A stretch of DNA of 51,505 bases, the filler included, from Streblomastix strix (Eukaryota), in the NCBI GenBank assembly GCA_008636045.1. It is 3 parts of 3 records of this genome, joined end to end, with 100 filler letters (N's around TTAATTAATTAA, not from the genome) between each part and the next. Parts side by side here need not be neighbours in the genome. Positions count along the whole stretch, not along the records: positions 1 to 17,106 come from SNRW01000724.1; 2 more parts are not named here. One strand, written 5' to 3'. The notes beneath the pieces were generated by a model that saw only the letters and a list, made by a program, of their open reading frames with translations, was not told the origin of the DNA and searched no databases. The position numbers and the translations under genes are program-made. The stretch's first letter is position 1. The number at the start of each line of letters is the position of its first letter. Positions 979-32,232 of the stretch are shown piece by piece.

Positions 979-1099
979 TTATTACTTAAAATAATTTTGA
1001 ATAATTAACTTAATCATTAACTTATATATTAACTCATACATTAACTAACGAATTGACTCAAAAATTAATCCAAAAATAAATGTTCTAAATCAATCAAAA

Positions 1100-1567: not shown

Positions 1568-1586
1568 TTGCTTTTAACAAAAACAG

Positions 1587-2972
1587 TCAAACACTAATAT
1601 TAAATTAACTTTTATAGTTTAAAAGTAATGAATTAACGTCTTCACTAATGAATTTACAATAATAAATTGATAACTCAATAACTTTAAGCTTATCAATTGG
1701 ATTCAATAATCTGCATACAACTTCAACATTCTTATAAATAATGAATGTAGCTAACTCATTGAACTAACGTCTTTACTTTTAAAATTTACTAGGTAATCTA
1801 GAGACATCTGCGTGAACCGCTAACATATTTCCATTCTTAAAATCAAACAAATTCTCTTGTTATTATCTTATCATTACTTATTCCAATTATGCTTATTTTT
1901 ATCTTATGAATTTACCTTCTAATTCTCTATTATACTATACTTATATAGGAGTAAATTTATTCAAAAATGCGAGATGAAGGGTTTTGTTATAAATCTCTAC
2001 CATTAATTTCATCTAACTAGGTGATGCTAATCCTTACAAATCTTATCCAAATCCATTTCTGATTGTACGAATGACACTATCAACTACTCTATTGTGCTAT
2101 GTAAACTGAGAACCAGTAAAGTAAAATGTAATCCTGTTATCATTGCAAAATTTCCTAATAATATTTAATTTAAATCCACTTTCATCATCATCTCTTATGA
2201 TCTTAACATATACCTATTTAATGAGTTTCATTAATGCGTCTAGTATATATTTTGCATTATTTTCATCTACAATTAATGGAATCACAACTAAATATTTTGT
2301 ATTAATGTTAATCGCGAACAGATAATGCTATCTTCTTTGAGTTACTGGATTAATACAAAATATAAGATCAATTTCCCATGATCCTAGTTTTGGAGAGAAG
2401 TACGGACGTTACAGCTTAGATAATGGTTTTACTTTAATATCTTTTATTTATGTTGAGTTCGTTATCTTTACCTAGTTAATCTTTTCATATTATTTGAAAT
2501 TATACTTAAACGGAAATTACGATAGTGGTGCTGGTGATTGGCCTATTCTTTTAATTTATTCAGTAACATGAGCTCTATTTGTTTCTTATCTTCTAATAGA
2601 TTTATCTCGTTTCAATGGTGCATTATACCTTTATGCTTCAGTTTAATATATTATATACCATGCCAATAATGTCTTTCCACCAATTTATGCATCATTAAAA
2701 TGATTAATTAATACGTTGTATTCAACTTTATTTGGAGTAATTCGCATATTTGAAACAAACTCTGCAAACTTCATAATATAATTATTTGAATTAACTAATC
2801 GTGTGAGTAAATTTTCCATATTCTATGCTTCATATGCAATGTTCTCATCAGTTTACGCGAATTCCATTAACAATACCTAATAAATTTAATCTTAATCAGC
2901 CTATATTAGTCTATTCATTTTCTATTCAAAAATAATTCTATGATCAATGGTAGATCTTCGAACCACATTCAT
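1587..2972 (-). CDS. Retroviral-type (rve) Polinton integrase, 461 aa, DD35D triad (third, divergent copy)
   Basis: Uninterrupted ATG-TGA frame under TAR=Gln. Motifs RPYFSPKLGSWEIDL, YLFAININTKYL, IRDDDESGF, FTGSQFTQHNRVVDSVIRTIRNGFG, YNKTLH. Clearly homologous to 9374-10768. Confidence 0.9.
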
Positions 2973-3936
2973 ATTTAATTGCTGCTTACCAAATAGCTTT
3001 CCAGATGGATTTCCAATCAATGTTCAATGATTCTAGTATTTTAATTTCTATAGTTATATTAGCGGATAATGGTTCAAATAATGATTCGAATGGCATTTTC
3101 AAAAGCCAAAAATAAATCAATCATTCATCAATCTTCTCAATGATATCTTTCAATTCTTCTTTATAATTGTTTCGCGCATCATCTTATTCCTCTAGCACAT
3201 TGTGTAATTTATTCTATTAAATATTTTCAACATTTAGATCAATTATCTCTTTGTTTATCTTTTACTTCAGTTTCTTTTCATTGATTTATTATGTTCTATC
3301 ATGTTCGAAGTTACTTCTAATTTATCTTAATATCGATTCAATCCTACCATTATCCCTTATAAATGCATTGATAGTTAACATAATGCTCTATTTTCATTCA
3401 TTGAATCTATACATTATCCAAGTTTTTCGATTGTATCTTTATATCATTATTCATTCATTTTGAATTGATTAAAAATAAAACATCCACTATTTCATTTATA
3501 TAAACGGTTTATTTATGCTATATTGCAAAATAACCAGTGTACGCTGAAATCATGAATAACCCCATAGTTTCTATTTTCGATGGTAAAATTGCTTAATAAC
3601 TAGTTTATTTTATTAATTTCCTTGATATTTTATTAAAATACACCATTTTACCAATTTATAAATTTTTTAGTGCACCAAGAGCGCCAGTTGCAATCGTTTT
3701 TTAAAAAATTGGAGATTTGCAGGCATTTCACTATCACACTTCACTTTTCACATCAAAGTCATAATATTAACACTACAAATTAATACCTTATTACTTAAAT
3801 TTATATTTTGCATATATTTTTCATTTTTGCAATAAAAGCATTTTTTCCCTGTTTTTCAGCGCACTTGTGATAATTTCATAATATAATAGTTGTTAATTGT
3901 GATATACAAATATATAAATTAGTTTTAGTAGTTTTA

Positions 3937-4008
3937 ACGATCTTAGCTTAGTGGGATGAATTGGTGGTCAGTTAACTGGAGGTAGTGGATTTGAGACCCA
4001 ACATGCGG
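3937..4008 (+). pseudogene. Degenerate tRNA-like sequence (Asn GTT-like) or tRNA-derived SINE head
   Basis: A-box-like TAGCTTAGTGG, then CA-GTT-AA, AGGT variable loop and B-box-like GATTTGAGACCC at tRNA spacing. Stems pair poorly. Confidence 0.3.
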
Positions 4009-4546
4009 GGTTTTTTCGACTATTGGAAAAAGACCTAAAATGCAAAATTCTGAAAAAAAAATTTATTTTTCATTTTTGACAAATTTTTAAATACCCAAAT
4101 TTTAAAAAATATTTTTTTGATGTTAGCTCCAATAAAATATTGATATAATGAAATTTAATATTATTTATTTACATTATTCAGAATTTAAGCCAGAAAACGC
4201 AGTACGACAATAAATGCACACTAGAGCTCTGATTGATGAATACTATTTTTCTAATTTAATTTGAATCATTAACTAAAATTAATTATATTTTAAACATCCA
4301 TATTATAATTCATTTGCAGGTCGAATGCTTTTGGAACACTCATTTTTATTTTTCAACTTACCGATTTGCAATTATTTCTCTATAACAATTTTATTTATTA
4401 TTGATTTTCATTTATCGTACACATTTAGTTAAGTTACAGTTAATTTTTTGTTAAATTCATTCATTCACTTACACATTCTATTCATTCAAATTTTGTAAAA
4501 ATAAATTGCATCACACGATTAAAAAATAAATGTGTTATATAATAAA

Positions 4547-7500
4547 TCATTTAATAAAATATTTATCAGTATTAATACCAAATATGAATGGTAAATAAGA
4601 TTAATTGGGTAGTACAATCATTTTTGTGTAACTTCCAGTTATTGCATTTTTTCCATCTTCAACCTGCTCATAACACTTTTTCTCTATACTAATGTTGTAT
4701 TGATGGCAGTAGTTATCTTACCTTCTTTAATAATATCCACAAATGTTTATTCATTAATTTATGGATTCTAATCAAGAATTACTCCTTTCAAAACAATTTC
4801 ATCATTAATAATGAAATTTTTTGGAGATAATGCTATGCAATTATAGCCATATTTCACAATACTAATATGCAATATCTATTTTTATCCATTATCACAATAT
4901 ACACTATCCATCTATTTATCGTTGAACTATTTATTTTTAGTAGCTGCATCAAATAATTATTTACGACCACGGTTTGAATCTCCATTAATTGCCCATATCA
5001 AACTATCTGTGTCTCCTTGTACAAAATACATCCTACTCATATCGTATGCTTTATGCATGAAATTATATATAAAATTTACATACCAGAATTTTGCTGAATC
5101 ATGTACGAAGTAAGGAACTTATAAACATGCATTACATCTACAGTTTTGCTTGTCCACCGATACAGCGTATAGATCATCATTTAATTCAGTTGAATGAATA
5201 AAGCCACTCATCATATGTTGTACAAATGTTTTATTAGCCGAAAATAGTTTCGTATTAGAGTATTTTACTGAGTTAAGTGCATCATCACCGCAAGCTGAAT
5301 TCAAAATTAATTTACAGAATTATCCCAATCCTTCATTCTTAACATCTTTTGCTTGTTATCTCATGTTCATAAATTCCTTCACAAATGGGTTGAAATTAGT
5401 ATGGTAACTATCTCATCAATTATGAATTGTCATGTATCCATTAATAGCCATAAATAATAATTATTGAATGACATTATCTAATCAATTGTATCGATTAAAT
5501 TTGTTAATTTCCTTTCTACTTTATTGTGCGGAAGTTGATGTTCAACTAGATGATTATACATAAATTCTCCGATTGTTTACTTAATAATAGTTATATCAAT
5601 ATGTGCGCTTCCATTCACAAACAATCTACTATTTTTTTTAATTTTAAAAAATTTAAAATAAATTTATAAACAAAAATTGGTTTTGCAAACATTTAGATTT
5701 GCATCCTCTGAAAAATTAAGCAAAAAATATATTCATGTTTTTTCAAAAGCAGAAAGCTAATATTATAATTAAATTTTTATTTTAAAAATTTTTTAAAATT
5801 TTTTCAGATATATTGAAGGACAAAAACCACATTTTCAGCGGAACAGATTCGTGAAAACCGTTTTTTTTATAATTTTTCGTTTTTTCGGCCCATTTCATGC
5901 TTAATTACTATTTTTTTTGTAAAATACTTTATTTATATTTATTTATTAAAATTTGAATCAATAAAAATTAAAATTATTACTATACTTATTGGCGAAATTT
6001 CAATTTAAATTTTTTTTTGTAAAATCCGTGTGCAAATTTTGAGAAAAATTAAAATGAATAATTGTAAAATAAATATATTAATGTTTAATATATTAAATTA
6101 TAATAATTGATGAATTTGAAATGATGCGTAGAGTAAAAAATCGAAAATACAAAAATTTTCTGTTTTCGCGAACGCATGCCGCTAAAAACGCAGTAATTGT
6201 CCATCAATGTATCTGAAAAAATTTATAAAAAATTTTAATAAAAATTAAATAATAATATTACTTGTATGATGACAAAAAAAATTAAATTATAATTTTTGCT
6301 CGATTTTATAGCGGAGTCAAATCGAAAAATTTGCAACTCCAGCTATTGTTCAAAAAATTATTTTAAATATTTATAAATAAAAAAATATGAAGTGATCCTA
6401 CTGAATGGACACTCCCATATTACGTAATATTGGACCTCAGTTGATAACTTCAATAATATATTGTTCATCAGTGCGACCTCTAACTTCAGCAACAAATAGT
6501 AACATTTTATCAACCACTAACGCATCTTCAGATAATCTATTAGCATCATATATCAACTATCTACATCTATCTTAATCCGTTACTCTTTCAATAAGTTATG
6601 CTGGCATGAATATTGTGTGATTAGTGTATGGAATTAACATATTCATTTCTCGACTCATAACTCTTGGATGTTAATTGTGAAAATCTAGCTACGCAACATG
6701 AATTTAAACGTAATCTGAATCTATTGAATAAACACATATATTTTCCTAATCAAACTCGAAGTGATTTATTATTGTTTATACAACAATATTATATCTATGC
6801 ATCACTTAAGATATACCACCTGTGATACCATTCCGCAATAATTGATATCTTTCATCACTAATCAATGTCATAGGTAACTGTTTAAGTAGCGCATATTTCC
6901 TTAATTATATCATTAATCTCATCTAATTTACATCTCTATTAGCCTTACATGTATTGCAATATAAACAACATGGAAGTACGTTATCTTTTGAATGACTTAA
7001 CTTATTATCTATTCTATTTAATGTTGGCCTATTTTTCCATGTAAATCTCGCATTACACATGTGACATCGTTAGTTCTTGAATAATTTTTTAAAATAATAA
7101 TAATCATTAATCGTTACGTTATTGCTTGAATCTCTATTCCTTTTATTATCTTATTCATTATAACTATCCACTTTAGCCCTCCAATAACAATATGTAATTT
7201 CAATTGATTTAGCAATACATTCTGAATTATAATCATCATTAATATCGAAACCATTATATGGCATAGAATACGTGATTGCAGTAGAGCATTACTACATTGA
7301 TATATTGGCTAGCATTGCCACTTTATATTTGAACATCATATCAATGAAATAATCAATAGGTTCAATCAAAATTCTAATATCAAGTATGTTATAATGCTTC
7401 AAATAATCCCATCTGTTAGTGAATTGAGCAGCATCGATCAAATATGCTTAAAATTTTGCATCACTTAACTTCTTATTTCGCAATTGGTTATCAAATGTTT

Positions 7501-9056
7501 CTATAGGAAATGGTTCACTTTTATTCAGTTCTTCAATGCAGTTATTAATGTTAATGAATTCATGTGGAAAACGACCTTTCAAATATGATCCGTTGTCGAA
7601 ATCTCTTACAGCATCCTTTAACTTATGTTTCATAGAATAGATCTTAAAATCAACGAATCTTAATTAAATGCTTGAATATTAATGCTTGACAATTATCTAT
7701 TTTGCAATTGAGTTTTATCCTAAATACTTCGAGATAGTCCAATTTTTTGATTTCAAATTCTTGAACAAAACAGATGTATCAAATTTAGCAGAATTGAATC
7801 CAATTACAGGTACTTCATAATATTATGGTATTGTTTCATCATTATATTTATTGTCTTTTTTAACTTGTTTTGCTTCTTCGAATAGTTACTTTAACCACTT
7901 ATCTAAGAAATTGTCTGTTCGAATATGAAAATAAAATGAATGTATAACATTAGCCAATTTGAAAGTTAATGCGATAGCATATGGAATTAACGTAGCAGTA
8001 ATTTATGAACAATCACCAAATTTTTCATTGACTTTCTTCTCTAAAGTTTCAATATTATATGTTATGTAATATTGAATAGGTTTGAACAAATGAGTTAAAT
8101 TATTCGCTAATAGATACTTGTAAGCCTTGTTAGATAATATATGTGGAACAAACGGTTTCGCAAATTTCTCAATAATGACCTTTTTAACAATTTTTCCATT
8201 ATTCTTTTGACATTTTTTCATATGATTCTCATATGTACTTATAGATTTTTATCCCCTATTCTGAATGCTTACCTATGGCATATGTTGCAATATCGAAATC
8301 CAGTTAATGCTTCAACATCAGATATGTACATAATGTGCACGTTAATTCCATCATTAAAGAATAGGATATTGAATTGTTTGGCTTAATCATTAACAAGATA
8401 ATTTTATGTTAATTCATAGTGCAGAGGATCACTTTCATAGGTATACATGTGTATGTTAACTTATTTTTTATTAATAAAGTTATCGATATCATTAACAAAA
8501 TCGAATCCTTTATAAATATCGGGAAATTCCTATCCCAGAACACCATTAAATATATGTTTAGCATCTGCAATTATTGAACTATCTTTCCATCGTTTATCCT
8601 TTGTATTAGGCATATTAATGAATGAATATGCGGTCCAAAAACATAGATTTACCTTACAATCTACATAATATATATTTCTTCGATTAATGAGTTGCTTTAA
8701 TGACGGAATAGCTGCACCTGCGAGAGGATAGCGAAATGCAAAGAACATTATTGAGAATATAACTACGATTTTTTCATGAGTATCAGTGTTAGTTCTTTCA
8801 TACATACTTCCTATAACTGTTGGAAGATATTATTTGAATGTGTTAATGTTATCCTATGATCTCATTTCCATTGGTGCTCTTCATTCAGAGTTTGCGTTAA
8901 CTGGAAGCACATATTTGTATTAAATTGTCTACTGTTACGCGTTACCATTAGCACTTTCAATTATCACTCCTAAATCAACAGCTAGTTTGAATATCATACC
9001 TTTCTCTTTTTTATATACCGCATCTAATAATTAATAAACATGTGCCAATGAAGATA
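4547..9056 (-). pseudogene. Protein-primed family B DNA polymerase (divergent paralog), 5'-truncated by nested insertion and split by a MITE
   Basis: OTU-like NLCFW...VHIMYI; CNIC Zn finger; ExoI YNIETLE, ExoII GFNSAKFD, ExoIII HYNILD; HNH CHMC..TLNRIDN..HSKDN..CLYCN; motif B KLILNSACG; motif C QGDTDS. Degraded motifs and in-frame TGAs. Stop at 4547-4549. Confidence 0.9.
5603..6416. mobile_element. 814-bp non-autonomous TIR element (MITE) with 4-bp ATAT target-site duplication
   Basis: Imperfect TIRs of ~260 bp (GTGCGCTTCCATTCAC... / ...CTGAATGGACACTCCC). ATAT at 5599-5602 and 6417-6420. Removing the element plus one TSD restores the PolB frame (...PILRN-IDIT...). Confidence 0.9.
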
Positions 9057-9386
9057 ACTACTACAGGATGGTGTTTTTCCAGAGCCTTAACTTTTTCCCA
9101 ATGTTTGGGGGTCTAATCTCCACGATTTTAGCCAAAAAGGTCATTCTGGACAATTAACCCTTAATATCAACGATTCTAACCGATATTTTGGATGATTCTA
9201 ACACATTGATTTTGAAAGGTACTTATAAGCATGAATCTCATCGATTATTTGAAAATAGAAGTTACGGAAATTCAATCCTTAGTATCAAGGGATTGTACCT
9301 TTGGTGACAACGTAGTTGCTAACAAACACAAAAATAATTTGAACATTGATTGAGATAAATTATTAGAGAACAAATGGTAAAAGCGC
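9057..9386 (+). repeat. Left terminal inverted repeat (330 bp), copy 1
   Basis: Reverse-complement match to 16878-17106 and homology to both TIRs of copy 2. Contains repeated ACGATTCTARC-like motifs and the integrase ATG. Confidence 0.92.
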
Positions 9387-10768
9387 TGACCGAGCAATAA
9401 ATTTTATTCAATATTATTAAGAAATATTATTTTGTGGCGACTGATTAATCAGATAATGATGCGTTAAATATATAGCAATAAATCACACATCTAGCCAGAG
9501 GGGAGGAATTATTGAATCTATAGAGCTTCATCATACAACTCAAAATATTTAAAACCAAACGAGAATAATAAATGGTATTGAATATCGTGGAGAAAGTAAT
9601 TATTGGAGAAAAACCTATTGCATAATGGTATGAAATTTATGTATAAGAAGCTAGACAATATAATGTGCCAAAACGAGGGAAAAGTGGTCGTTCCAAACTT
9701 ATCAAATTAAAAGATGAGGATGAATATGCAGATTAGTTAAGTGAATAAGAAAATAAAACAGTTAAGATTGTTAAATTTCCTTGGAAAACTAAAGTGAAAT
9801 CATATGCTAAAATCAATAATGTTGAGCCATAAGAAATTCAACAAAGAGTCTAAGATTATTAAATAAAACCATTAAAGTAATTTCATCGACCATACTTTAG
9901 TAACTAGTTTGGTTCTTGGGAGATAGATTTAGTGTATGAACGAAATAACAAAAATAGAGAAGTGAATTATTTATTTGCAATTAATGTTAATACAAAATAT
10001 TTGATTGTGCTTCCAATTATTAATAAATCAGCATCTCAAGTAATAAATGCATTGAAGAAACTTATAAATTAATAGTACGTAACTAACATAAGAGGTGATG
10101 GTGAAAGATCATTCAAAGGTAAGGATGTACAATAATTCTTAGAAGAGTAAGGAATTTAGTGCTTTTTCACAGGATCACAGTTCACGTAACACAATAGAAT
10201 AGTTGATTCAGTTGTTAAGACTATTCGTAATGGATTTGACACAAGCAGTAATGATTTTGTTGATCCTGAAAAATTATAATAATTAGTCTATATCTATAAT
10301 AAGACCCCACATCTATCGTATGATAATAAATTTTCATCTGAGGAAGTGTAGTATAATTCAGATATTGAAGAAGCATTCATTAGAATGAAGGAATAAGAGT
10401 TAAATGCTATTAAACAAAAATAAAAAGCAGAAGGATTATTCGATTTTAAACAAGGTAATGTATTAATGATTCATCTTGATTTATCAAAGACTGCTTTCTC
10501 TTATATGAAACGAAGAAGATAGTTCAATGAGCTAGCTGAGTTCATAGAATATATGAACGGTAATGTAGTATGCAAACTATTACAATAATTCATATCATAA
10601 CATTAAAAATTATCAGTAGTTGAAGTGCCAATATACTACTGCAAGAAAGTTAGCGAAAACATAGATTCATTACTCAATGTTTATTTATAAGAGTTCGATA
10701 TAACTTTTGAAAAATAAATAAATGATCAAATGTAACGATAGTTAGAAGCATCAACTCCAAAAATTTGA
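9374..10768 (+). CDS. Retroviral-type (rve) integrase, 464 aa, DD35D triad
   Basis: Intact frame under TAR=Gln: FGSWEIDLVY, YLFAINVNTKYL, IRGDGERSF, then 35 residues to HNRIVDSVVKTIR, YNKTPH. Its 3' end overlaps the convergent polB 3' end by 43 bp. Confidence 0.93.
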
Positions 10769-13700
10769 GGTGCACATGGATATGATTATCCTTTGGAAAT
10801 ATCGCTATCAATTACTATCATCTTATCAACTACTCCAGTAAGTGCAGACTTAGTTATTTTTACCATTGACATCACACCATTTTCCAATTAAATTTGTGTT
10901 ACTGGAACTGATATATTTGAATTATTTTCAATACAATTTATGTAATCATCTCTTGTCAAACCACTATTCTTTTCATTAATTCCCTTCATTCTAATTACAT
11001 CTTCATCATCATCATCATCATCTTTTTTATTACGGATAGCGGAATAACATTTGGGAGCTAGACAAATGATACTTTCTCTTTAGGATTCGATAGCACAACC
11101 GAGTAATTTCTTTTCTTCAGCAATTGTACATCCCTCCCATGGAAGCCACTCTTTATAATGATCATCCCAAAATTATTAATCTTTAATTGCATGTTTGAAT
11201 TTTTATTTATATCCTTCAACAGTTGAACTACTAATAGCTAGATACATCGAGTCAGTATCCGTACAGCAGAAGTGAACACGATCCATATCAATACACTTAT
11301 ACAAGAAGAAGTAAATGAAGCATAAATACCAGAATTTTGAATTGTCTTATGTGAAGATACTTTCTTATAAGCACTTGTGAGCAGAGAATGAATCTGGATT
11401 AATTAATACAAGATAACGGTCTTTGCAAATCTTTCGAGTGTTAGTGAAGCCTTTATTCAATTATTTTAAATATGTTTATTGTTTGTTATAGATACCAATC
11501 TTTTCAAATTTTTCATTATTTTATCTATCAGCTCCATATGAACTATTCACTATATTTTTGAAATAAAGTTATTTAGCTTGATTACCCTCTCTCATTGCTT
11601 GTTATCGTTTCTCAGCCATTACTTCTACGAATGATTTGAACGCAGTGTGTTTGGTAAATAATACTATCTCTTCAACATCATCGATAATGAAATGACAGTA
11701 GTCTATCAACAGCCATAAGTAGTAGCTTGAGAATGACATAAATTCATCGTGAGTAGATAGCAAAGAGGTTAATTTTGTTAGTAATTTATTAACAGTTATT
11801 CCTTTCTTTTACATTTTTTCATAAGTGAATTTTCCAATTGTTTTCTCATCAGTTTTATAAGTTCGCTTCCTCCAGATTGGTGGAAAATTAATGTGGTCGT
11901 TAATGTGATTCTTATCGATATGACCCTTAACTGACGCTATGAATAGCTATCCTTTTTCTTCAGAGAATCTATCTTCTGAGTTAATGATATTCATCATCTC
12001 TTTTCGTTTAGTATCTCTATAATCTTGGTCATTTGCTTCCCGAATTTTAATGTATTTAGTTACTCTTCCAGCCATATACATCTTATCACCTGTATACTGA
12101 TTATTTTTATTATAAATTCCAACGAAAGCACTTGGATATGATGAATTAAAATCAAGATCCAAAATATGTGTTATGATGTAATCTAAATCGTAAGCCGTTA
12201 CGTTATTTTCTTCAGAATTATACAGTAGTTTATTTATATGCGTAAATCCTTTGATGTTATATTGATGAAATACATATGATAATCCTTCATGGATAGGTTT
12301 GCGTAAAAACCAATAAACTTCTTCATCATCAATTGTCATAGGTAGATTCTTAACAATAGCATACTTGAACATCTATATCATTAATTTCGCCACATCAGCA
12401 TCCTTGTTTGATCTTGTAGAATTGCATAATTAGCATGCTAGTTTACAGTTATCTTTAGTGTGAGCAATGTTGTTGTCAATTCGTTCAAGAGTTGTTTTGC
12501 TTACTTTAGTGAACTTAGCATTACAGTTGCAACATTTAATTGGGATCATCTGATTGAAATAATCTATATTATTAGCGGTTACGTTATTTGTTGTATCTCT
12601 CCCTAAGTTTATATCTTACTGCAAACATGATTCAACTTTTTTATTCCATTTTTCTGAATAAAATTTATATTCTTTATGGTCTGTTTCTATGTTGTAATCA
12701 GCATTAATGTCGAAATCTTCCCATGCGTAATTATATTTAATTGAGTTAGCGATTTGAGATAAGGATATCTAAGATAACATATCAATTCCATATTCCCAAT
12801 ATAAGCCTATTAAATTATTGATTGGAGCAAACATACACTCTACATCACGAATATTGTAGTACTTTAGATATGACCATCTATCTTTAAATTTTCTGTTCCC
12901 ATTTACATCCAAACTATTAAAATCATCAACGTATTCCTAATAATCTTTATCGCTAATATTTTTTTGACTAATTTAATTATAAAAATCCTTATGTTCAAAT
13001 TGTTCTGATGATGATAAGAACTAATTTACATTGTTAGTGTTGAAGGATCCATGAGGAAATTTACCCTTAGTTAACTTAGTTCCATTCCCATACTATTTAA
13101 CGAAATTATCAAGAGTAGTTGGTGGAATATATGTAAGAACATCTTTGAACACTAGCTCGAAAGGATAATCTGTATGTCTAATTGTTACTTACTTCTGTTG
13201 TGTTGTTGATCCGAGATATGAGTTATTTTTAAATATGATTTTAGGATATTAAACTAGATATGGAAATATGATGTTAAAATCAAACTTCTTAGCATTGAAT
13301 CCGAAGATTGTTACTTGATGGATCTTTTATTAAAGTTTTTATTATTCGTTCTCATTATCGAATTTTACTATTGGCTCACATGCTAAATTTGCTTCATTAA
13401 TCTAGTTCGCTAGTTCCCACATTTGCTCTATGAATTTGTTCATGAAATCTTATGTTCGAATATCAATATATTTTGATTATATTTTATTATTAATTTATGT
13501 GCCAATCACAATAGATAATGGTAGTAATTACGCGTAAATTGACTCATTGTTCTAGTCTTGATCCTCAACAGTTTCTGCATCAATACACATGTAATTTTTT
13601 GTAGGTTGTAGTATATCGTTTACTCCATGCTCATTATCCTTTGGGAATAGCTTTTTTTTAGCCTGTTGCGAATAGCTTTTGAATAGTTTTATTAGATTTA

Positions 13701-15793
13701 AGAAATGGCATAAGTGGTTAGGCTAACTTATCAAGTTTTGGATGTTTCATTTGATCTGGACCTTTACATGATTCTAGATGAGTCTTTAAGTCTCTACAAA
13801 AGTGAGCACTAGCCCGATTGAATAATTTTTTATTGCATTTCTTGCATAAGTATCCACCAACTACTCGATCAATGTCTTTGATGAACATAGCGTGAACTTA
13901 TGGGTTATCATCACCTTGTATAGATAATGGAGCTAGTAGAATGTGAGTAGTTACCCACTCTTGGTTAACAATATATTCGTTAGATTTATTGAATTATTTT
14001 TCAGAGTGATCATATTCATAAGTCATCACATTTAGCTTGAAACATTATTGGAATTTCTCTAGATCTGTATCTTAATTGAATCCTGCATAATCTTTCAACA
14101 TTTATTTTTATTCTTTATTTAATCGTCCACCATCTTTATGAACTTGATCATTAAATTACTGGAACAATTCAATAGCATAAGCGATACGCGATTTATTGTT
14201 ATTTATTTCAGGATGTAATTAAAATGAAGCAGCTATGAACCAGCAGATATTGTAATCACAATCGATAGATCTAGTGTAATCGTGTTAATTAAACCATTAT
14301 ACTTCGGGTCTTAATTTTGTTCCAAGTGGTAATTCATAAACAATAATAACAAAAGAATAAAGTGCTACTCTTCTAGTGTTCGATTCTTAGTGAAGAGGTG
14401 ACTAATCTTCGTAAATCATATCGTGAATTTTATCTTTGAATAGTTTAAGTGAAGCATTATCTCGTATAATTATTGGGTAATTTTTATGTGAATTTTCTAA
14501 TGATGGTTTATAGTAATGATAGCTGAAATCGTTTCTGATCCCCTTCTTGATATGAGTTGATTAAGTATTTTACCAGATACTTCCAAAGTCTGCTGCTATC
14601 TTATATATTTTATTTTTATGTAATTCATGTAATTATGCTAGTTTATCATCGAATTATTAAAAATGAGTAAATTTATTAAAGTAATATGTATGATAAGGTT
14701 CTTTATTTTAAATATTATTAGCCTAAGCAGATTTCTCAGATATTCCATTAAGATTAACCTCATTCTATTCACGGTATCGCTTTCGTGTTTCAATTAGGAT
14801 CTCATTAAATTTCTTCAAATCATCAGGTTAAAAAAATATAAATGCTTTGAGCTATTCATCAACATTGGCGTTATATTCATTAGTGAACTTGAGATCAGGC
14901 TCTTTTAATTATTTATTTTTATAGAATCCGAGTAATGATTCAGTTAGTTTTGCTTATCTAATCGTATTCTCTTCTTCAGTTAGTTTATTTTTGTTAATAT
15001 CTGATAATCTCTCATCTCTAATTCGTTTAACTTGCTTGAATGTATTACTGAGATCTTTAATAAAGTGATTTATTATTTTTCGTTGTTTATATCACTAGTA
15101 TTATCGTTATATTTTCCTAGCTGCTTAAGTTAGTTATAACAAGTCTGAATTGTGAGCTAACTCAGCTCTTGTATTGGTTACATAGTCCTTACTAATTATA
15201 TTCAAATCATTGATTCGTTATTATTTTATTTCATTAATTTATTACACTTATTTATCCTTTAATTCTTATAGTTATCTCTTTGCATCATTGATTTACTAAC
15301 GATTTCTAATAGATTTCTTGACTAAATCGATAACCTTCTTACGCGTCACTTCGTCTTTAATCTCATTTAGTTAATCATTAGCATTATTCAATCTTGTTGA
15401 TTATTCCTATAACTTTGTCACTTATTATCTAAGTTCAATTTACTTATTAATTTCATCCAATTTTTCCGCGGCTTGTTTAAGTTCTTACTTTGCTTTGATT
15501 CTTTATTGTTATAGTTATATTAACTCTTACGCATCATCTTATTCATCACTTTATACATTACTCTTTATAGTGGTAACTTCATTGCTATTCTATACATCAT
15601 TTGTTACTATTATATGGTTAACGAACTCTCTTATCTTAGTAACACTACTCTTTGATCCTGAGTACCTCTACGCTTTGATAGTTTACAGTAACAGTTAATC
15701 GAGTACCGGTTTAGTTGATTTGTGGTCATATTGAACATCAAGTTGATCGAGTATCTAACGAACTTCAGAAATCAAAAAATATTTCCTCTCCAT
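10726..15793 (-). CDS. Protein-primed PolB polyprotein (~1688 codons: HeH-like/coiled-coil, putative terminal protein, OTU-like protease, Zn finger, 3'-5' Exo, HNH insert, polymerase)
   Basis: Motif A DFNSSYPS, B KNIVNSSYG, C CCTDTDS; ExoI CIDAET, ExoII GFNAKKFD, ExoIII YYNIRD; NICWF...VHAMFI; CKKC..H...C. The only interruptions I found are one in-frame TGA (15092-15094, shared with copy 2) and a +1 shift in the T8 run at 13652-13659. Confidence 0.92.
15092..15793 (-). CDS. 233-aa N-terminal product of the polB ORF (HeH/LEM-like head plus coiled coil) if the conserved TGA terminates
   Basis: MERKYFLISEVRQILDQLDVQYDHKSTKPVLDQLLLQ... resembles a helix-extension-helix pattern (inference). Ends AARKIQRQYQ-TGA. 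Equivalent 213-aa frame in copy 2 (30572-31213). Confidence 0.6.
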
Positions 15794-15832
15794 TTTGGAC
15801 TCGATAAAATTTTGTGGTTCGATGTTTGTATA

Positions 15833-15876
15833 ATGTATGAGTTATGAATGAGTTATGTATGAGTTATGTATGTGTT
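15833..15876 (+). repeat. Four tandem 11-bp units (ATGTATGAGTT) in the divergent polB/ORF3 intergenic region
   Basis: atgtatgagtt atgaatgagtt atgtatgagtt atgtatgtgtt; not seen in copy 2. Confidence 0.8.
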
Positions 15877-15909
15877 ATGCGTATTAACTATTTTTTCCAT
15901 AATTGAAAT

Positions 15910-16854
15910 ATAGTTAGTGAAACAGCTGAATTGCAACAATTAATATAATAAATTTCTGAATTAACTTCAACAAGTGCTATAAGATAATTTGTATAAGAAA
16001 ATTATGATATGCTATAATAAGTTAGTTCATTCGTTCTAAATAAATATCTCACAATACCCGACTATAAATTTACAATACGCAATAATTTAATTGAACTTTA
16101 TCATGTAAAAACAAACAAACAGAAATAATATGAATTACTACCAAAATAAATTGAGTAGGTAAAATAAGATAATACATTAACTGACACGTTAACGGATCCT
16201 GCAAATTCATAAGTGAAAACACAACTCCCAAGATAAATTTATCCTATATATTAGAGTGCTGATGATGTGGTTTAGCAAGACAGATAAATAAATGAATAAT
16301 TAAGTGAATAGAGTGATAAAAATACTATTAAATCATCAATAAATAAATTATTGATTAATCATTATTCATAATAAGATAACAAAAATATTTATCCAACATC
16401 AGGTGTATAAACTGGTGATCTTATTGAAGGATTATTCGAAAGTGAGTTAGGTTAAATGTTAGAAGTAACTTGTGATGCACTATGCGAATATAATGAAATT
16501 GATTCAGGTATTGATCATGAAAAATGTAAGTAAACTCGTGAGTATTATTAAATGAATGTATCAAAGGATGCGTAGCAATAGATAAATAATGTTATTAAAT
16601 TATTAGATTCAAGTCTACTTGGAATCTACATTCGAAATATATATAGTTTGGTAGCTCAAATGTTACAAAATTAAGCTTATCAAACTAATACACCAAAGAT
16701 GTCCGATCATGATAAATTTATAGAGTAATTACGAAAATAAAATGAACATCTCTCAAAAACACCTGAAGAAATTAAACATCATTTATTTCCTAATCTTTAC
16801 AAAGAACCATATTAGTAATCATACCAGTAATCATATTTTCAACGTTCTGATTGA
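15910..16854 (+). CDS. Orphan ORF3 of the 8-kb element (~314 aa, unknown function)
   Basis: TGA-free frame conserved with copy 2 (PRQIYPIYQ.ADD, TIKSSINK..INHYSQQDNK, GLFE.E.GQ.LE..CDALCEYNEI, SDHDKF.EQLRKQNE). ATA at 15910 aligns with the ATG of copy 2; first in-frame ATG at 16009. Confidence 0.75.
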
Positions 16855-16877
16855 TTTCATTATTTTTTGGAATTGAG

Positions 16878-17106
16878 GCGCTTTTATCATTTGTTCTCTA
16901 ATAAGTTATCTCAATCAATGTTCAAATTATTTTTGTGTTTGTTAGCAACTACGTTGTCACCAAAGGTACAATCCCTTGATATTAAGAATTGAATTTCCGT
17001 AACTTCTATTTTCAAATAATCGATGAGATTCATGCTTATAAGTACCTTTCAAAATCAATGTGTTAGAATCATCCAAAATATCGGTTAGAATCGTTGATAT
17101 TAAGGG
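16878..17106 (-). repeat. Right terminal inverted repeat of copy 1 (outer ~100 bp missing)
   Basis: Reverse complement of 9158-9386; runs into the N linker. Confidence 0.92.
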
Positions 17107-20200: not shown

Positions 20201-21674
20201 GTCTGTTCCTTCATCAGATGAAATAGTGACTTCCATGTGTCGTACCTTTGCGTCTCGAATTCCAAAGTCTATAGATTTCTCTAAAGCTCATTCATCAATA
20301 ACAGGAATTTTACCTAAAAAAAGTATGAAAAAATAAACTCAAGGAAGCTTAACTCAATTAAAGGTTTAGAACAATTAATAAGTTGCTAAACCAAATGAAG
20401 TTTAAACTGAATTGGATGAATTTGGTAATCCAGTTGAAGGGAATGATTAGAACACAAGGAAAATACCAAGTAGTGAAACCGCATAAAGTGACGCTTCAAA
20501 CTCAGAAGCATTAAAGAATTAGTAGATAGAAGCAGAATTATTGGCAGAGGAAGAACTTGCTCGTAAATTTAAAGAAGCAGCTCAGAAGAATTCGCTTAAT
20601 ATTGTATTGCAATAAGAAACAGTACGTTTTAACAGATTGTTGAATGTAATTCATCAGTCACTATCTGATCTAAAAGCAGCTGTATAAGGATTTGTTGTTA
20701 TGAGTGAATCATTAGAAGGTATGCATTAATCGTTCCTTATAGCTCAAGTTCCTGCTATCTGGGCTAATGTTGCATATCCATCATTGAAATCTCTTGGTTC
20801 ATGGATTGATGATCTTATTGTAAGAGTGAATTTCCTTGAAATGTGGATTGAGAATGGAGCACCAAATTCATTCTTACTTCCTGGATTCTTCTTTCCATAA
20901 GGATTTCTAACTGGTATATTACAGATGCATTCAAGAAAGACTCAAATACCAATTGATACTCTTATATTCAGATGTCATGTAGAAGATTAAATATTTAGAA
21001 GTGAGGAAGATGATATGCCAAATAAAGGGCCAATAACTGGAGTATATGTTCATGGGTTATTCCTTGAAGGAGCTCGATGGGATAATGAAGAACATGTTAT
21101 TAGTGAGAGTGAGCGTGGAATACTCTCTGTTCAAATGCCCATGTTATGGCTTGAACCTGTTGTTAGAGGCACTGCACCAATCACAGATGCACTCAACACA
21201 AAAGCAGATATAGATAATAAATTGCAGGATAGAAAAATATCACTTCAACAGGAAGATGATGAAAGATAAGCTTAAGCAGAAGATATAGCACATGAATGGA
21301 ATGAAGAAGAAAATGGAAAGGTCCCTGATGAACTTGGAGTAATTGTTACTAATGCTGATGTTATAAATGATGGAGAGAATTCTTCTTCTTTAGATTAGAC
21401 AATTCTTTTATAACGTAAGCATTAATTATGGTGTGAAAGACGTGCATAAGCAAGAAAGGAAATCAGAGAGTAATAGAATAATGATCGAATTAATTCACGA
21501 CATCGTCTTTGTGTGTATGACTGTCCATTATACAAGACTCAGGCTAGATATGGAGTACTTTCTACAACTGGACATTCAACAAACTTCGTCTTTGCAGTTT
21601 CCTTGCCTACATACTAAATCCCTCAGCATTGGGTTAGACGAGGGGTAGCACTTCAATGCGCAGTCGAAAACTGA
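17208..21674 (+). CDS. Axonemal dynein heavy chain, C-terminal part (AAA5, AAA6, C-terminal domain), 5'-truncated; probably inner-arm type
   Basis: Single frame under TAR=Gln: [103 protein letters not shown]. Long acidic/Gln-rich inserts. TGA at 21672-21674. Confidence 0.96.
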
Positions 21675-23828: not shown

Positions 23829-24829
23829 ATTCTTATTTTATTTTGCATTTATAACCGGATTTGGCATTACTTTTAGAATAATTTTTTGTGATTTTTAAAT
23901 TATTAATACATTTATCAATAATTCTTAAAAAACATACATTTCTAAAATTTTACTCATGAATAATATTTAAACTCCATAAAGAGAAAAATATAAATTGTAC
24001 TATTAATATAATTAGTAAAAAATATACTAAACAATATACAGACTCAAAAATAAAATTTTTTACTTTTGTAAATTTTTTCTTTTTAAAATTTTTACATTTC
24101 AAATTAATCCACCATCGATTGGAATTTGATACTAACGCCAATCATCTTTAAATTGCAATGGTGTCTCAATAATAAAGTGATTTAAAGGGAATAGACAGTA
24201 ACAAATCATTAGCTACAAAGAAATAACATTATACATTTTGCTTTTATACAAGTTTTATTGTTTAATTTAAGGTTTACTTCAATATAACTTTTGATAATGA
24301 CTTAAAATATATTCATCATTTTAAAATTTTTAATCATCAAATAGTTGTTTTCATCTTTCTTAACAATTTGTCCTCTTTAAATAGTAGAAGTTGTATTAAA
24401 GAATTCATTAACTTAAATTTTATAGATAAATTTGAAAAAATTACAATATAATAATCTCTATGAATATTTGAAGTCCAGTGGCGATAGTTCCAATGACCGA
24501 GAAAAAATATTTTTCTTTTTATCTTCATACTCTCTACCTACCATACTACTATTCAGTGACTGTTTTCTAGTACCTTAGCTTTTTCACGATGTTTTTGACC
24601 TAATCCTCCACGATTCTAGCCAAAATGGTCATTCTAGACAAATAACCATATTTATCAACGATTCTAGCACATTTTTGTTATAATTTATACAATTTGTTCA
24701 AAATACTGGGAATCTATACAATTATTTGAAAATGGAAAGTTGTGGAAAATCAACGCTTAATATCAACGATTCTAACACATTTTTACCATTATTTAAACAC
24801 ATTGATTGAGATAAATTACTAAGAAACAA

Positions 24830-26188
24830 ATGCCAAAAGTGCTGACCAGGCAATAAATTTTATTCAATATTATTAAGATTTACTATTTTGTAGATACAAA
24901 TTAATCTGGTAATGATGCACTAAATATATAGCAATAAATCACACATCTAGCTAGAGCAAAGGAATTATTAAATTTATAGAGCTTCATCATACAACTCAAA
25001 ATATTTAAAACCAAACGAGAATAATAAATAGTATTGAATAATTTAGAGAAGGCAATTATTGGAGAAAAATCTATTGAATAATGATATGAAATTTATGTAT
25101 AAGAAGCTAGATAATATAATGTACCAAAACGTGGGAAAAGTGGTCGTTCTAAATTGATAAAATTAAAAGATGAGGATGAATATTAAGAGTAATTAAGTGA
25201 ATAGGAAAATGAAACAGTTAAGATTGTTAAATTTCCTTGGAAAACTAAAATGAAAGCATATGCTAAAATCAATAATGTAGAGCCATAAGAAATATAATAT
25301 AGAGTCCAAGACTATTAGATTAAACCATTGAAATAATTCCATCGGCCATATTTTAGTAATTAATTTGGTTCTTGGGAGATTGATCTTGTGTATGAACGAA
25401 ATAACAAAAATAGAGAAGTGAATTGTTTATTTGCAATTAATGTTAATACAAAATATTTGATAGTGTTTCCAATAATCAATAAATCAAAATCTCAAGTAAT
25501 TAATGCACTGAAAAAACTAATAAATTAATAGTATGTAACTAACATAAGAGGTGATGGAGAAAGATCCTTCAAAGGTAAGGATGTACAGTAATTCTTGAAG
25601 GAGTAAGGAATTTAGTGCTTTTTCACAGGATCTCCGTTCACATAGCACAATAGAATGGTTGATTCAGTTGTGAAGACTATTCGTAATGGATTTGGTACAA
25701 GCAGTAATGATTTTGCTGATCCTGAAAAATTATAACAGTTAGTCTATATCTATAACAAGACTCCACACATGGCATATGATAATAAATTCCCTCCTGAGGA
25801 AGTATAGTATAACTCAGATATTGAAGGGGCATTCATTAGAATGAAGGAACAAGAGTTAAATGATATAAAATAAAAAAAAACAAAAGGATTATTTAATTTT
25901 AAACAAGGTAATATATTGATGATTCATCTTGATTTATCAAAGATTGCTTTCTCTTACATGAAACGAAGAAGATAGTTCAATGAGCTTGCGGAATTCACAG
26001 AATATAGGAACGGTAATGTGATTTGTAAATTATTAAAATAATTCATATCATAACACTAAAAATTATCTATAGTTGAAGTGCCGATATACTACTACAAGAA
26101 AGTTAGTGAGAATATAGATTCATTACCATAAGTTTATTTATAAGAATTTGATATCTTCGGCGGCAACAACGTTGCTATAAATATTTGA
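24830..26188 (+). pseudogene. rve integrase (DD35D), copy 2
   Basis: WEIDLVY, IRGDGERSF, HNRMVDSVVKTIR. TGG-to-TGA nonsense change at 25082-25084 relative to copy 1. Confidence 0.9.
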
Positions 26189-26202
26189 AAAATAATAAAT
26201 GG

Positions 26203-29200
26203 TCAAACATAATGATAACTAGATGCATCAACATTCATAATCTAAGGAGCACTTAGATATGATTAACCTTTGGAATTATCGCTATCAATTACTATTATTT
26301 TATCAGCTACTCGTGTTAATGCAGACTTAGTTATTTTTTTCATTGACATCACACCATTTTTCAATTAAATTTAAGTAACTGGAACCGATACATTTGAATT
26401 ATTTTCAATACTATTAAAGTAATCATCTCTTGTCAGACCGCTATTCTTTTCATTAATTCCCTTCATTCTTATTACATCTTCAATCTCGCCGTCAATTGCA
26501 GAATAGCATTTGGGAGCTAAACAGATGATGCTTTCTCTCTATGATTCAATAGCACAGCCGAGTAGTTTCTTTTCTTCAGCAATTGCACATCTCTCCCAAG
26601 GTAACCACTCTTTATAATGCTCATCCCAGAATTCTTGATCCTTAATTGCAAGTTTGAATTACTATTTATATCCTTCAATAATTGAACCACTAATAGCTAC
26701 ATACATCGAGTCAATATCCATACAACAAAGTGAACACGATTCATATCAATACACTTGTACAGGAAGAAGTAAATGAAGCATAAATACCAGAATTTTGAAT
26801 TATCTTAAGTGAAAATATTTTCTTATAAGCATTTATGCGTAGAGAATGAATCTGGACTAATAGACACAAGATAACGGTCTTCACAAATCTTTCGTGTGTT
26901 AGTGAAACCTTTATTCAATTATTTTAGATATGTTTATTATTTATTGTAGATACCAATCTTATCAAATTTCTCATTATTCTAACCATCTGCACCATATGAA
27001 CTATTCACTATGTTTTTGAAATAAAGTTATTTAGCTTAATTACCCTCTCTCATTGCTTGATAACATTTCTCAGCCATTACTTCTACGAATGATTTGAACG
27101 CAGTATGTTTGGTGAATAATACTATCTCTTCAACATCATCGATAATGAAATGACAGTAATCTATTAGTAACCATAGGTAGTAGCTAGAGAATGACATATA
27201 TTCATCATGTGTAGATAGTAGAGAGGTTAATTTTGTAATTTATTTATTTACAGATATTCCTTATTTTTATATCTTTTCATAAGTAAATTTACCTACTGTT
27301 TTCTTATCTGTTTTATAAGTTCTCTTTCTCCAGATTGGTGGGAAGTTAATGTTATCATTAATATGGTTCTTATCGATGTGACCCTTAACTGATGCTATGA
27401 ATAACAACCCCTTTTCCTCTGAGAATCTATCTTCTGAGTTAATGATATTCATCATCTAATTTCGTTTAGTATCTTGATATTCTTAATTGTTAGTTTCACG
27501 AATTTTAATGTGTTTAATTACTCTTCCAGCGATGCACATCTTAACACCAGTATATGGGTTATTTTTATTATAAATTCAACAGAAAGCATTTGCATCTAAT
27601 GAGTTAAAATCAAGATCCAGAATATGTGTTATGATGTAATCAAAATCGTAAGCAGTCACATTGTTTTCTGCCTGATTATATTTTAATTTAATTATACGCG
27701 TTAAACCTTTGATGTTATATTAGTGGAATACTTATGATAATCCTCCTTGAATAGATTTGCGTAAAAACTAATAAACTTTTTCATCCTCAATTGTCATAGG
27801 TAGATTCTTAACAATAGCATACTTGTACATCTATATCACTAATTTTGCCATATCAGCGTCATTGTTTGATCTTGTAGAGTTATTTAGTTAGCAAGCTAGT
27901 TTACAGTTATCTTTTGTATGAGCAATGTTTTTGTCTATTCGTTCAAGAGTTGGCTTGTTTAGATTAGTGAACTTAGCGTTACAATAGCAGCATTTGTTTG
28001 GGATCATCTGATTGAAATAATCCATATCATTAGCGGTTACGTTATTCGTTGCATCTCTTTCTGCTTTGATATCCTGTTGCAAATATCCTTCAACTTTCTT
28101 ATTCCATTTTTCTGAATAAAATTTATATTCTTTATTACCTGTTTCTATATTGTAATCAACATTAATGTCGAAGCTTTCCCAAGTATAGTTATACTTAATT
28201 GAGTTAGCGATTTGAAATAGTGATATCTAAGATAGCGTATCAATACCTTACTACCAACATAAATCTATCATATTATTAATTGGAGCAAATATACACTCAA
28301 CATCACGAATATTATAGAACTCAAAATATGCCCATCTATCTTTAAATTTTCTGTTCCCATTTGTATCTAAACTAATGAAACCATTAGGTTGAGACGAAGT
28401 GAAATCATCAACTTATTCCTAATAATCTTTATCGCTAATATTTTTTCGACTAATTTAATTATAAAAATCATTATGAACAAACGGTTCAGTTGATGATAGG
28501 AACTAATTTACATTGCTAGTATTGAAGGATCAATGTGCAAACTTTCCTTAGGTAAGTTTAGTTCCATTTCCATATTTATGAACAAAATTATCTAGAGTAG
28601 TTGGAGGGATAAATGTAAGAACATCCTTGAACACTAGCTCAAACTAATAGTCAGTATGTCTAATTGTTACTTACTTCTGTTGTGTTGTTGACCCGAGATA
28701 AACGTTACTTTTAATTACAATTTTAGGATATTAAACTAGATATGGGAATATGATGTTAAAATCAAACTTCTTGGAGTTGAATCCAAAGATAGCTACTTGA
28801 TGAATATTTTATTAATGTTTTTATTATTCATTTTCATTATTAAATTTCACAACAGGTTCACACGCTAAATTCGCTCCATTAACTTAATTCGTTAGCTCCC
28901 ATAGTTGCTCTATGAATTTGTTTATGAAATCTTATGTTCGAATATTGATGTATTTTGATTATATTTTATTGCTAATTTATGTACCAATGACTATAGATAA
29001 TGATTGTAATTATGCGTAGATTTATTCATCATCTTAATTTTATTCTTCAACAGTTTCAGAATCAATGTACATGTAATTTTTTGTGGGTTGTAATATATCG
29101 TTTACTCCTTATTCTTAATCTTTGGGGATTAGCTTAGTCTTACCTATTGCGAATAGTTTTTGAATAGTTTTATTTGATTTGAGATATGGCATAAATGATT

Positions 29201-31213
29201 GTGCTAAAATATCAAGTTTTGGGTGTTTCAATTAGTCAGGACCTTTGCATAATTCTAGATGAGTCTTAAAGTCTCTATCAAAGTGAGCTCTAGACCTATT
29301 GAATAATTTTTAGTTGCACTTCTTGCATAAGTATCCACCTACTACTCGATCAATATCTTAGATGAACATTGCGTGAACTTATGGGTTCTCATCACCTTAT
29401 ATAGATAATGGAGCTAGTCAAATAGGAGTAGTTATCCACTCTTAGTCAACAACATATTCATAAGTTTTATTGAATTATTTTTCAGAGTGATCATATTCAT
29501 AAGTCATTACGTTTAGCTTGAAGCATTATTGGAATTTCTCTAGATCTGTATCTTAATTGAATCCATCAAAATCTTTTAACAATTATTTTTATTCTTTATT
29601 CAATCGTCCACCTTCCTTATGAACTTAGTCATTATACTGTAGGAACAATTCAATAGAATTAGCGATATGGGTTTTTGTTTAATTAATTTCAGGATGTAAT
29701 TAAAATGATGCAGCTATGAATCAGCTGAAATTATATTCACAATCAATTGATCTAGTGTAGTCATGCTCATTAAACCATTATACTTCAGGTCTTAATTTTG
29801 TTCCAAGCGGTAATTCATAAACAGTAATAACAAATGAATAAAGTGCTACTTTTCTATGGTTTGATTCTTAGTGAAGAGGATACTAATCTTCGTGGATCAT
29901 ATCATGGATTCTACCCTTGAATAGTTTTAGCGAAGAGTTATCTCGTATGATTATTGGGTAATTTTTATGAGAATTTTCTAATGATGATTTATAATAATGA
30001 TAGCTGAAGTCGTTTCTGATTCCCTTCTTGATATGAGTTGATTAAGTAGTTTACCAGATACTTCCAAAGTCTGCAGCTATCTTATAAATTTTATTTTTAT
30101 GTCATTCATGTACTTAAGCTAATTTGTCATCGAATTATTAAAGATGAGTAAATTTATTAAAGTAATATGTATGATAAGGCTCTTTATTTTAAATATTATT
30201 AGCCTATGCAGTTTTCTAAGATAACCCATTAAGATCAACCTCATTCTATTCACGGTATCGCTTTCTTGTTTCAATTAGTGTTTCATTAAATTTCTTCTAA
30301 TCATCTGGTGCAAAATACATAAATTCTTTAAGCTCATCAGCAACATTAGTGTTATATTCGTTAGTGAATTTGAAATCAGGCTCTTATAGTTGTTTATTTT
30401 TATAAACTTAAGTAGTGAATCAGTTAATTTTGCTTACCTTATTGTGTACTCTTCTTCAGTTAGTTTATTTTTATTTATGTCTGATAATCTTACGTCTCTA
30501 ACGCGCTTCATTTGTTTGAAGGTATTACTAAGATCTTTAACGAAATGAGATATTATTTTTCTTTCTTTATATCATTAATATTATCGTTATATTTTCCGAG
30601 CGGCATGAGTCAGATATATCTAGTCTAAATTATGTGCAAGCATTGCTCTTGTATTGATTAATTGTTTCTTACTGATTGGGTTCAAATCATTGATTTGTTA
30701 TTATTTTATTTCATTAATTTATTGCCCTTATTTATCCTTTAACTCTTGAAGTTATCTCTTTGCTTCATTGATTTACTAACGATTTCTCATAGACTTCTTG
30801 ACTAATTCTAAAGCTTTAACTCCTTTTAGTTATTCATCAGCATTATTCAATCGTGTTGTTTGCTCCTATAACTTTGTCACTTACTATCTAAGTTCAATTT
30901 ACTTATTAATTTCATCTAATTTCTCTGCGGCTAGTTTCAATTCTTATGTAGATTTTATTCTTTATTGTTATAATTATATTAACTCTTATTCATTATTCTC
31001 TTCATTATATTATTCATTTTTAGTTGCAACTGCATTGTGGACAAATTCATTTATCTTAGTAATATTACTCTTTAGTCCATTGTAACCTTATTCTTTGATT
31101 GTTTGTAGTAACAGTTATTCAAGTACTGGTTTTGATGATTTAGAATCACATTGAACATCAAGTTGATTGAGCATGTCACGAACTTCGGAAATTGGAAAAT
31201 ATTTTCTTTCCAT
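26203..31213 (-). pseudogene. Protein-primed PolB polyprotein, copy 2
   Basis: Colinear with 10726-15793. Frameshifts near 26728 and 30405, private TGAs, DTDS changed to DIDS, OTU-like Cys changed to Ser. Shares the TGA at 30572-30574 with copy 1. Confidence 0.9.
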
Positions 31214-31297
31214 TTTGTAATCTGATAAAAAGTTGTATTAATGATGGTAAAAAGTTGTTTATAATGATTGAATCAAATATTTTTACAGCTTCAAAAT

Positions 31298-32232
31298 ATG
31301 CCGCAATTAAACAAGTACTAACTAGAAATATTATAAAATTTATCAAAATTAACATTACCTGAAGAAGTTAGAATGTTCATGTTAGAGAACCCAAATCTTG
31401 ATTAAATTAAATCGTTCATTATTAGCAAATATATCAGTTTCCCAACTTATCTGATTGTTCGTAGACATGATAGATTGTATTTAGATACTTTATAAAAGAA
31501 TCGATAAAAATACACTTAAAATATAAATGATACTTTAATAGACCCAGCAAATTTATTATCTGACCAAATAAATCCATTAGTGAAGTCTTCAATTCCAAGA
31601 TAGATTTATCCTATATATCAGACTGCTGATGATATTGGATAGCAAAATGAATAAAAAAGTGAATATTTAAGTGATTAATTGAGCAATAAAAATACCATTA
31701 AATCTTCTATAAATAAATTTATGATTAATCATTATTCATAATAAGATAACAAAAATAATCAATCCACATCAGGTGTATAAACTGGTAATATTATTCAGGG
31801 ATTATTCGAAAGAGAAATAGGGTAAAAATTAGAAGCAATATGTGATGCGCTATGTGAATATAATGAAATTGAATCAAGTATTGATCACAATAAATGCTAG
31901 GAACTTCGTGAAATTTATTAAATAAATATACCAAAGGATGAGTAGCAATAGATAAATAATGTTATTAAATTAATTGATTCAAGTTTACTTAGAAATTGTA
32001 TTCGAAAAATCTATGGTTTGGTTATTGCAATGATATAAAATTAAACAATTCAAAATAGTAAACCTAAGATATCAGATCATGATAAATTTGTGGAATAGCT
32101 TAGAAAATAAAATGAAATACTTTGAAATCACCAGACGAAATTATGTTGCACTTATTTGGAGATAATTATCAAAAAGCTAATTAATAATCACATTTTCAAC
32201 GATCTGATTTATTTTATTATTTTTAGAATTGA
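31298..32232 (+). pseudogene. Orphan ORF3, copy 2
   Basis: Starts MPQLNKYQLEILQNLSKLT; homologous to 15910-16854; 1-bp deletion near 32122. Confidence 0.75.

Follow-up and report, generated by a model that had tools for sequence, protein, structure and literature searches.

A three-gene element of about 8 kb in Streblomastix strix

We analysed a 51,505-nucleotide stretch of DNA (filler included; hereafter the window) from the Streblomastix strix assembly GCA_008636045.1, consisting of three contigs joined by N spacers that begin at positions 17107 and 34308. Two of these contigs each carry a copy of an element bounded by terminal inverted repeats (TIRs) and encoding an rve integrase, a protein-primed DNA polymerase B (pPolB) and an orphan open reading frame (ORF), ORF3 (Table 1). 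The host is an oxymonad, a termite-gut protist whose sole stop codon is UGA; the available part of PMC10120064 describes S. strix as reading TAA and TAG as glutamine. Across the window, only 2 ORFs of at least 100 aa exist under the standard code, compared with 142 under code 6, and the genes are open under code 6 only. Among 41 polymerase homologs, 36 are named S. strix, 13 of these at 62-89% identity, and one S. strix homolog was not treated as independent of the second contig in the window. The element is represented among contigs of three studies.

Table 1 Features of the two copies and of the element that hosts copy 1.
Feature	Position	Strand	Description
Left TIR, copy 1	9057..9386		~330 nt; terminus 5'-ACTACTAC; integrase start codon at inner end
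rve integrase	9374..10768	+	464 aa, open in copy 1; triad D185-D242-D278 (D35D)
pPolB gene	10726..15793	-	~1,690 codons; broken in copy 1
Zinc-binding HNH-like insert	12406..12543	-	exonuclease-palm interval; conserved Cys pattern
T run	13652..13661		one base longer in copy 1; frameshift from mutation or misassembly
vOTU protease domain	13865..14317	-	predicted fold; conserved Cys and His
Predicted terminal-protein (D1-type) alpha/beta domain	14333..14695	-	model topology
In-frame TGA	15092..15094; 30572-30574 in copy 2	-	common to both copies; Arg in P0014 and P0184
N-terminal coiled-coil-like part	15095..15793	-	233 codons; terminates at the shared TGA
pPolB/ORF3 divergent-start gap	15794..15906		short; 11-nt tandem repeat
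ORF3	15907..16854	+	start at 15907/16009; about 280-315 aa; orphan; mainly helical by prediction
Right TIR, copy 1	16878..17106		truncated by contig end
Copy 2	24545..32530		complete, 7,986 nt; layout as copy 1, decayed
Second-family element hosting copy 1	1590..9056	-	decayed; pPolB ~4621-9027 and integrase 1590-3023 in tandem

The two copies are collinear from end to end, with 6,491 of 7,831 aligned positions identical (83%) and no indel longer than 39 nt except where copy 1 is truncated on the right. This agrees with the first-pass annotation of the window, which had described two insertions on different contigs with shared TIRs, a size of ~8.0-8.15 kb and three genes. Copy 1 covers 9057-17106, its contig stopping within the right TIR; its inverted arms (9158-9386 and 16878-17106) show 4 differences over the 229 nt compared, and its complete length would be 8,151 nt, given 330 nt for each TIR. 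Copy 2 has both ends, as had been claimed, with arms at 24545-24843 and 32233-32530 that are 85% identical. The TIR lengths of ~330 and ~300 nt lie within the 100-1,500 bp range used for Polintons. The element ends in 5'-ACTACTA, and ACTACT...AGTAGT-3' was read at 9057-9064, 24545-24551 and 32524-32530. Canonical Polinton ends begin with 5'-AG(T), and the 5'-ACT ends of the element run in reverse.

Copy 1 is nested within an element of a second, related family, inside its pPolB gene. At least eight contigs of run X2, from an independent study, have flanks that diverge exactly before 9057 (agreement 0.6), among the contigs listed and with 799 and 127 further entries in the mapping tables for joints and loose ends. 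Such differing flanks at one precise end point to multiple insertion sites.

Outside its genes and TIRs, copy 1 has only 151 nt of sequence. Between the copies, dN/dS is 0.13 for the integrase, 0.15-0.16 for the pPolB core, 0.25 for the pPolB N-terminus and 0.39 for the ORF3 core, at a dS of 0.44-0.59 (about 0.5), which points to purifying selection on all three genes. From this divergence and the low dN/dS, the copies would have separated long ago, stayed under selection and kept every junction, and since all genes appear constrained at a dS of about 0.5, the three-gene layout likely persisted through replicating lineages. The pPolB-ORF3 junction is also present in a third copy (a 1,177-nt contig, with a spacer of 164 rather than 155 nt), between the adjacent named gene models P0041 and P0162, and in a 438-nt contig identical to copy 1 (0 differences). 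The integrase-pPolB junction is spanned by a 324-nt contig from another study (X4 record 26), and the ORF3 end is connected to a TIR variant in a further contig. The gap between the divergent starts of pPolB and ORF3 may be a putative bidirectional promoter.

Predicted products of the three genes

The integrase of copy 1 is intact, as the first-pass annotation stated, and matches PF00665 (E 1.5e-8, 35.2 bits against a cut-off of 32.6); that of copy 2 contains one stop. Aspartate is the third catalytic residue in five of six aligned integrases, and in the integrases of the clade (9374-10768 and the relatives L002 and L005) it replaces glutamate.

The three minus-strand pieces of pPolB represent one gene, because the homologs P0014 and P0184 span them as a single protein. 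The 89%-identical relative P0003 matches PF03175, whereas the polymerase of copy 1 itself has no Pfam match; a phmmer search of PDB with the polymerase gave nothing useful. Exo I-III and polymerase motifs A-C were identified in the pPolB alignment, copy 1 bearing private changes within motifs A, B and C. Given these changes and the broken gene, copy 1 is young but damaged: the earlier claim that it is recent holds loosely by its TIRs, but its polymerase gene is broken. The gene is broken in copy 1 at the in-frame TGA and at the extra base of the T run, a base that is absent from the contigs of runs X1, X2 and X3. The pPolB of copy 2 has 5 private stops, the shared TGA and 2 frameshifts.

In a model of the middle piece of pPolB (19 sequences, pLDDT 72), the order of secondary structures in the predicted terminal-protein (TP) domain seems to fit the TP/D1 description in the accessible text of PMC11161782; no TP structure was directly matched by this domain. 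Candidate serines lie in the loop joining helix 2 to the last strand. The vOTU model resembles OTUD1 in Foldseek (prob 1.00, E 5.4e-3), and in a VIA search ranks 1-19 were all OTU-type (Z 8.6, rmsd 5.5, 124 aligned). A zinc finger follows the vOTU domain, then the exonuclease and polymerase motifs. For the insert in the exonuclease-palm interval, both PDB matches of profile A1 were HNH nucleases, one of them PacI, at weak E values of 0.52 and 1.1.

Around the shared TGA of pPolB, copies 1 and 2 have 11 informative residues in common relative to P0014 and P0184, against 4 and 2 for the alternative groupings, and up to 20 codons to either side synonymous sites differ by 46% and 56% and non-synonymous sites by 12% and 8%. 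The simplest reading would be that the TGA was inherited and that selection continued downstream of it, which would require read-through. We place such opal read-through slightly short of an even chance; weighing against it, no stimulating stem-loop was found downstream (z -0.4 to +1.4), and the evidence comes from two copies only and was noticed post hoc. Splicing-out of the TGA was rejected because copy 2 does not retain the GT, and origin at a CpG hot spot is disfavoured, as copy 1 has 22 further CGA codons and none of them reads TGA in copy 2. The Arg/opal polymorphism upstream of the alphavirus polymerase is an analogue of the Arg/TGA site. No report of such read-through was found in the literature searched. 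A motif that we take to be IQ-like lies at the site (15095-15130, minus strand) and occurs twice over in P0179 and P0183 of the sister family.

We regard ORF3 as a real gene because the dN/dS of its core is below that of the five other frames (0.53-1.19). No homolog was found among 377 candidates of 154-492 aa, no Pfam match exceeded the cut-off, and the representatives library gave 3 short fragments matching ORF3, which thus appears to be without a homolog outside the element family. The first-pass annotation had named a jelly-roll capsid or ATPase fold in ORF3 as an outcome that would count against a capsid-less element. The model is mostly helical (12 helices and 2 short strands) and gave no jelly-roll or P-loop match, but it is of low confidence (pLDDT 38, 2 sequences). 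No Foldseek match in the PDB or viral sets reached E 0.001 and the best VIA Z was 5.1; at this pLDDT, a missing fold match says nothing on the novelty of ORF3. As the most likely role of ORF3 we guess a helical factor that binds DNA or has an accessory function, and not a virion protein.

Capsid genes, mode of spread and rival explanations

Capsid genes were sought with a profile of 120 major capsid protein (MCP) homologs, of the family listed for S. strix in the available material of Bellas et al. The profile matched the Polinton-like virus (PLV) of the third contig at E 8e-233 and gave no match in the 12 frames of both copies or in the host element (best E 0.54). No Walker A motif occurs in any frame of either copy, compared with 2 in the remaining window. 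For a packaging ATPase or a Ulp1-like maturation protease, the gene pieces gave no Pfam match and there is no free space. The earlier claim that capsid, ATPase and protease genes have no room is thus borne out by the little spare sequence and by the lack of MCP and Walker A matches. In a weak test, none of 36 pPolB-bearing S. strix contigs coincided in length with any of the 120 MCP-bearing ones.

A metagenome scan gave 13 loci out of 72 pattern matches, the close ones being short fragments of 32-45% identity, and three viral_contigs scans (26, 7 and 2 pattern matches) gave no confirmed relative. In L002 and L004 the integrase lies tail to tail with pPolB, as in the element; in L003 and L005 the two are in tandem. 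L001, whose pPolB is 41% identical, has an ATPase with Walker A and B motifs directly downstream (2526-3365), followed by two ORFs without assignment. From its motifs we presume it to be a packaging ATPase; a phmmer search of PDB with it gave nothing useful. L001 uses the standard code and is likely a virus-type member of the clade. In a quick, unrooted pPolB tree (32 of 54 rows), which shows family structure only, the element family falls into a single 8-row clade (SH-aLRT 100), which is separate from L001 and from the remaining S. strix families.

The element is thus multicopy, about 8.0-8.15 kb long, with no capsid or ATPase gene detected and no room for a maturation protease. We consider it probable that it is an autonomous capsid-less Polinton-type self-synthesizing transposon that spreads within the oxymonad genome. 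The long pPolB would be made as a polyprotein, from which the vOTU domain would excise the TP domain, by extension from what the available text of PMC11161782 describes. The released TP would act as primer on a linear copy after its excision, starting synthesis at the ACT-repeat ends, and the D-D35-D integrase would place the product at new sites, other elements included. Jump-back priming, which occurs in adenovirus, is a model for TP priming at ACT repeats. The most likely origin would be a virus-type Polinton that lost its morphogenetic module; because the deeper order of the tree is not resolved, this descent is something that we infer. A fuller version, in which an autonomous minimal Polinton abandoned the virus state and one sub-lineage tunes polymerase dose via opal read-through, is put forward as tentative and rather doubtful.

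Several points weigh against an autonomous capsid-less transposon. The ATPase beside the pPolB of L001 means that the clade includes virus-like members, and the poor ORF3 model (pLDDT 38) would leave room for a structural role. The contig-length test is weak because it samples 120 of about 820 MCP copies, the supplement of Bellas et al., as far as available, giving 820 MCP genes for the S. strix genome; these could package the element in trans. T. vaginalis Polintons were considered capsid-less until an MCP was discovered (PMC10120064, available part). No 5-6 bp target-site duplication (TSD) was found at copy 2 (flanks TACCAT and CACATG), an old copy whose flanks disagree at 2 of 5 positions; the right flank of copy 1 is absent. 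Finally, both window copies are now damaged and neither is intact.

The first-pass annotation had offered two possibilities, a streamlined lineage or a satellite that would replicate and integrate by itself and be packaged in trans by the host's capsid-encoding endogenous viruses. The streamlined lineage gained support from selection at a dS of about 0.5 and from the recurring junctions. We regard the satellite as unlikely: the 820 MCP copies reported in the available supplement, the MCP-bearing PLV of the window and the close family sequences in three studies are in its favour, but the TIRs show no likeness to the PLV contig (13 nt at best, E 0.06), the window PLV has a DUF5906 helicase-type gene and different end repeats, and host code 6 in the genes argues for long residence in the host lineage.

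Two lineages at a dS of about 0.5, plus further copies, share every junction, which makes it quite improbable that the element is one part of a bipartite Polinton, or that it arose by deletion from a longer, capsid-bearing parent whose TIRs are the same and which lies elsewhere in the genome. With polymerase and integrase both aboard, no partner is needed for movement, and the partial test found no MCP on pPolB contigs. Against this stand the ATPase adjoining pPolB in L001 and the non-autonomous capsid-less Polintons listed in the available part of PMC4028283.

If ORF3 were an unrecognised capsid or core protein, the element would be a minimal virus. ORF3 is conserved and orphan, and metamonad MCPs were overlooked for long (PMC10120064, available part); however, at about 300 aa it is far from the about 560 of the host MCP family, its model has 12 helices and only 2 short strands, it remained unscored against the 120 MCPs (best E 0.16) and no packaging ATPase accompanies it, so that we find this very improbable. 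An assembly chimera of collapsed repeats is barely credible, for although the data are short-read and highly repetitive and copy 2 has no TSD and TIRs that are 15% different, two independent contigs are collinear, the 438-nt contig has 0 differences across the pPolB-ORF3 junction, and the junctions recur in other studies.

Known systems and neighbouring sequences

Capsid-less Polintons are already known as a category; what is new here is the size and the demonstrated selection. The capsid-less family of the first-pass annotation therefore stands as an unusually small variant under selection, but not as a new category. In its available part, PMC4028283 (Krupovic et al. 2014) lists 9 of 72 Polintons without MCP, ATPase and protease, of 11,092-42,550 bp (Table S1: P_Dr, Polinton-1N1/2N1_DR, Polinton-1_EI, P_Gi1.1, Polinton-1_GI, Polinton-2/3_HM and Polinton-1_TV). 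These and the element alike miss the three genes in concert; the listed Polintons have room for unrecognised genes, whereas the element has almost no spare sequence and appears to be under selection in every gene. The T. vaginalis member of the 2014 list was later shown to have an MCP, according to the available text of PMC10120064. No account of this 8-kb family was found in the literature searched, whose coverage was partial, so that a prior mention is possible; the available parts of PMC12220804 and PMC12721341 hold nothing on such elements, and that of one Jeong supplement gave no oxymonad match.

Going by the accessible portions of the sources, virus-type Polintons share with the element the TP-vOTU-exonuclease-palm order of pPolB (PMC11161782), an rve integrase and TIRs of 100-1,500 bp, but they measure 13-25 kb (PMC10748475) against 7,986 and about 8,151 nt. 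Unlike them, the element has no detected MCP, minor capsid protein, ATPase or protease, and has Asp as third catalytic integrase residue; the 5-8 bp TSD of Polintons was not seen at copy 2, the old copy with both flanks. A PacI-like HNH insert, described in the available part of PMC10748475 as unique to oomycete and nematode pPolB2, whose elements encode virion genes, has weak matches in the element; if these hold, HNH-bearing pPolB extends beyond oomycetes and nematodes. Cytoplasmic linear plasmids (pGKL1 type) and casposons are, like the element, capsid-less with (p)PolB and TIRs, the former being described as Polintons minus the morphogenetic module (PMC11161782, available part). The plasmids have no integrase and casposons are, in the sources as available, prokaryotic and Cas1-based, whereas the element has an rve integrase.

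A virus-free transposon lifestyle has recently been doubted for this group (Bellas et al.), and the 8-kb family restores a clean test case. It would show which genes are needed, at minimum, for eukaryotic self-synthesizing transposition and be useful for the question, raised in the available text of PMC11161782, of how TP comes off ahead of integration.

The second family is 34-44% identical to copy 1 in the polymerase core and 42% in the integrase. Its layout over 1-9056 is a tandem of pPolB, a small ORF, the integrase and another small ORF, the last of which, near 1100-1381, carries an RGRP AT-hook-like motif. No MCP match was obtained in the visible part of this element, and an AT-rich insert whose inverted arms measure 110 nt breaks it up near 5570-6420.

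On the third contig, 34408-47250 is a decayed PLV without pPolB, whose S. strix-type MCP is frameshifted at 36459-38013; it also has a KilA-N gene, repeat-rich fibre-like ORFs and the DUF5906 helicase-like gene. On the second contig, 17208-21674 (plus strand) holds the C-terminal part of a host gene, with a CpG observed/expected ratio of 0.35 compared with 0.68-1.0 in the elements. We take this gene to resemble a dynein heavy chain.

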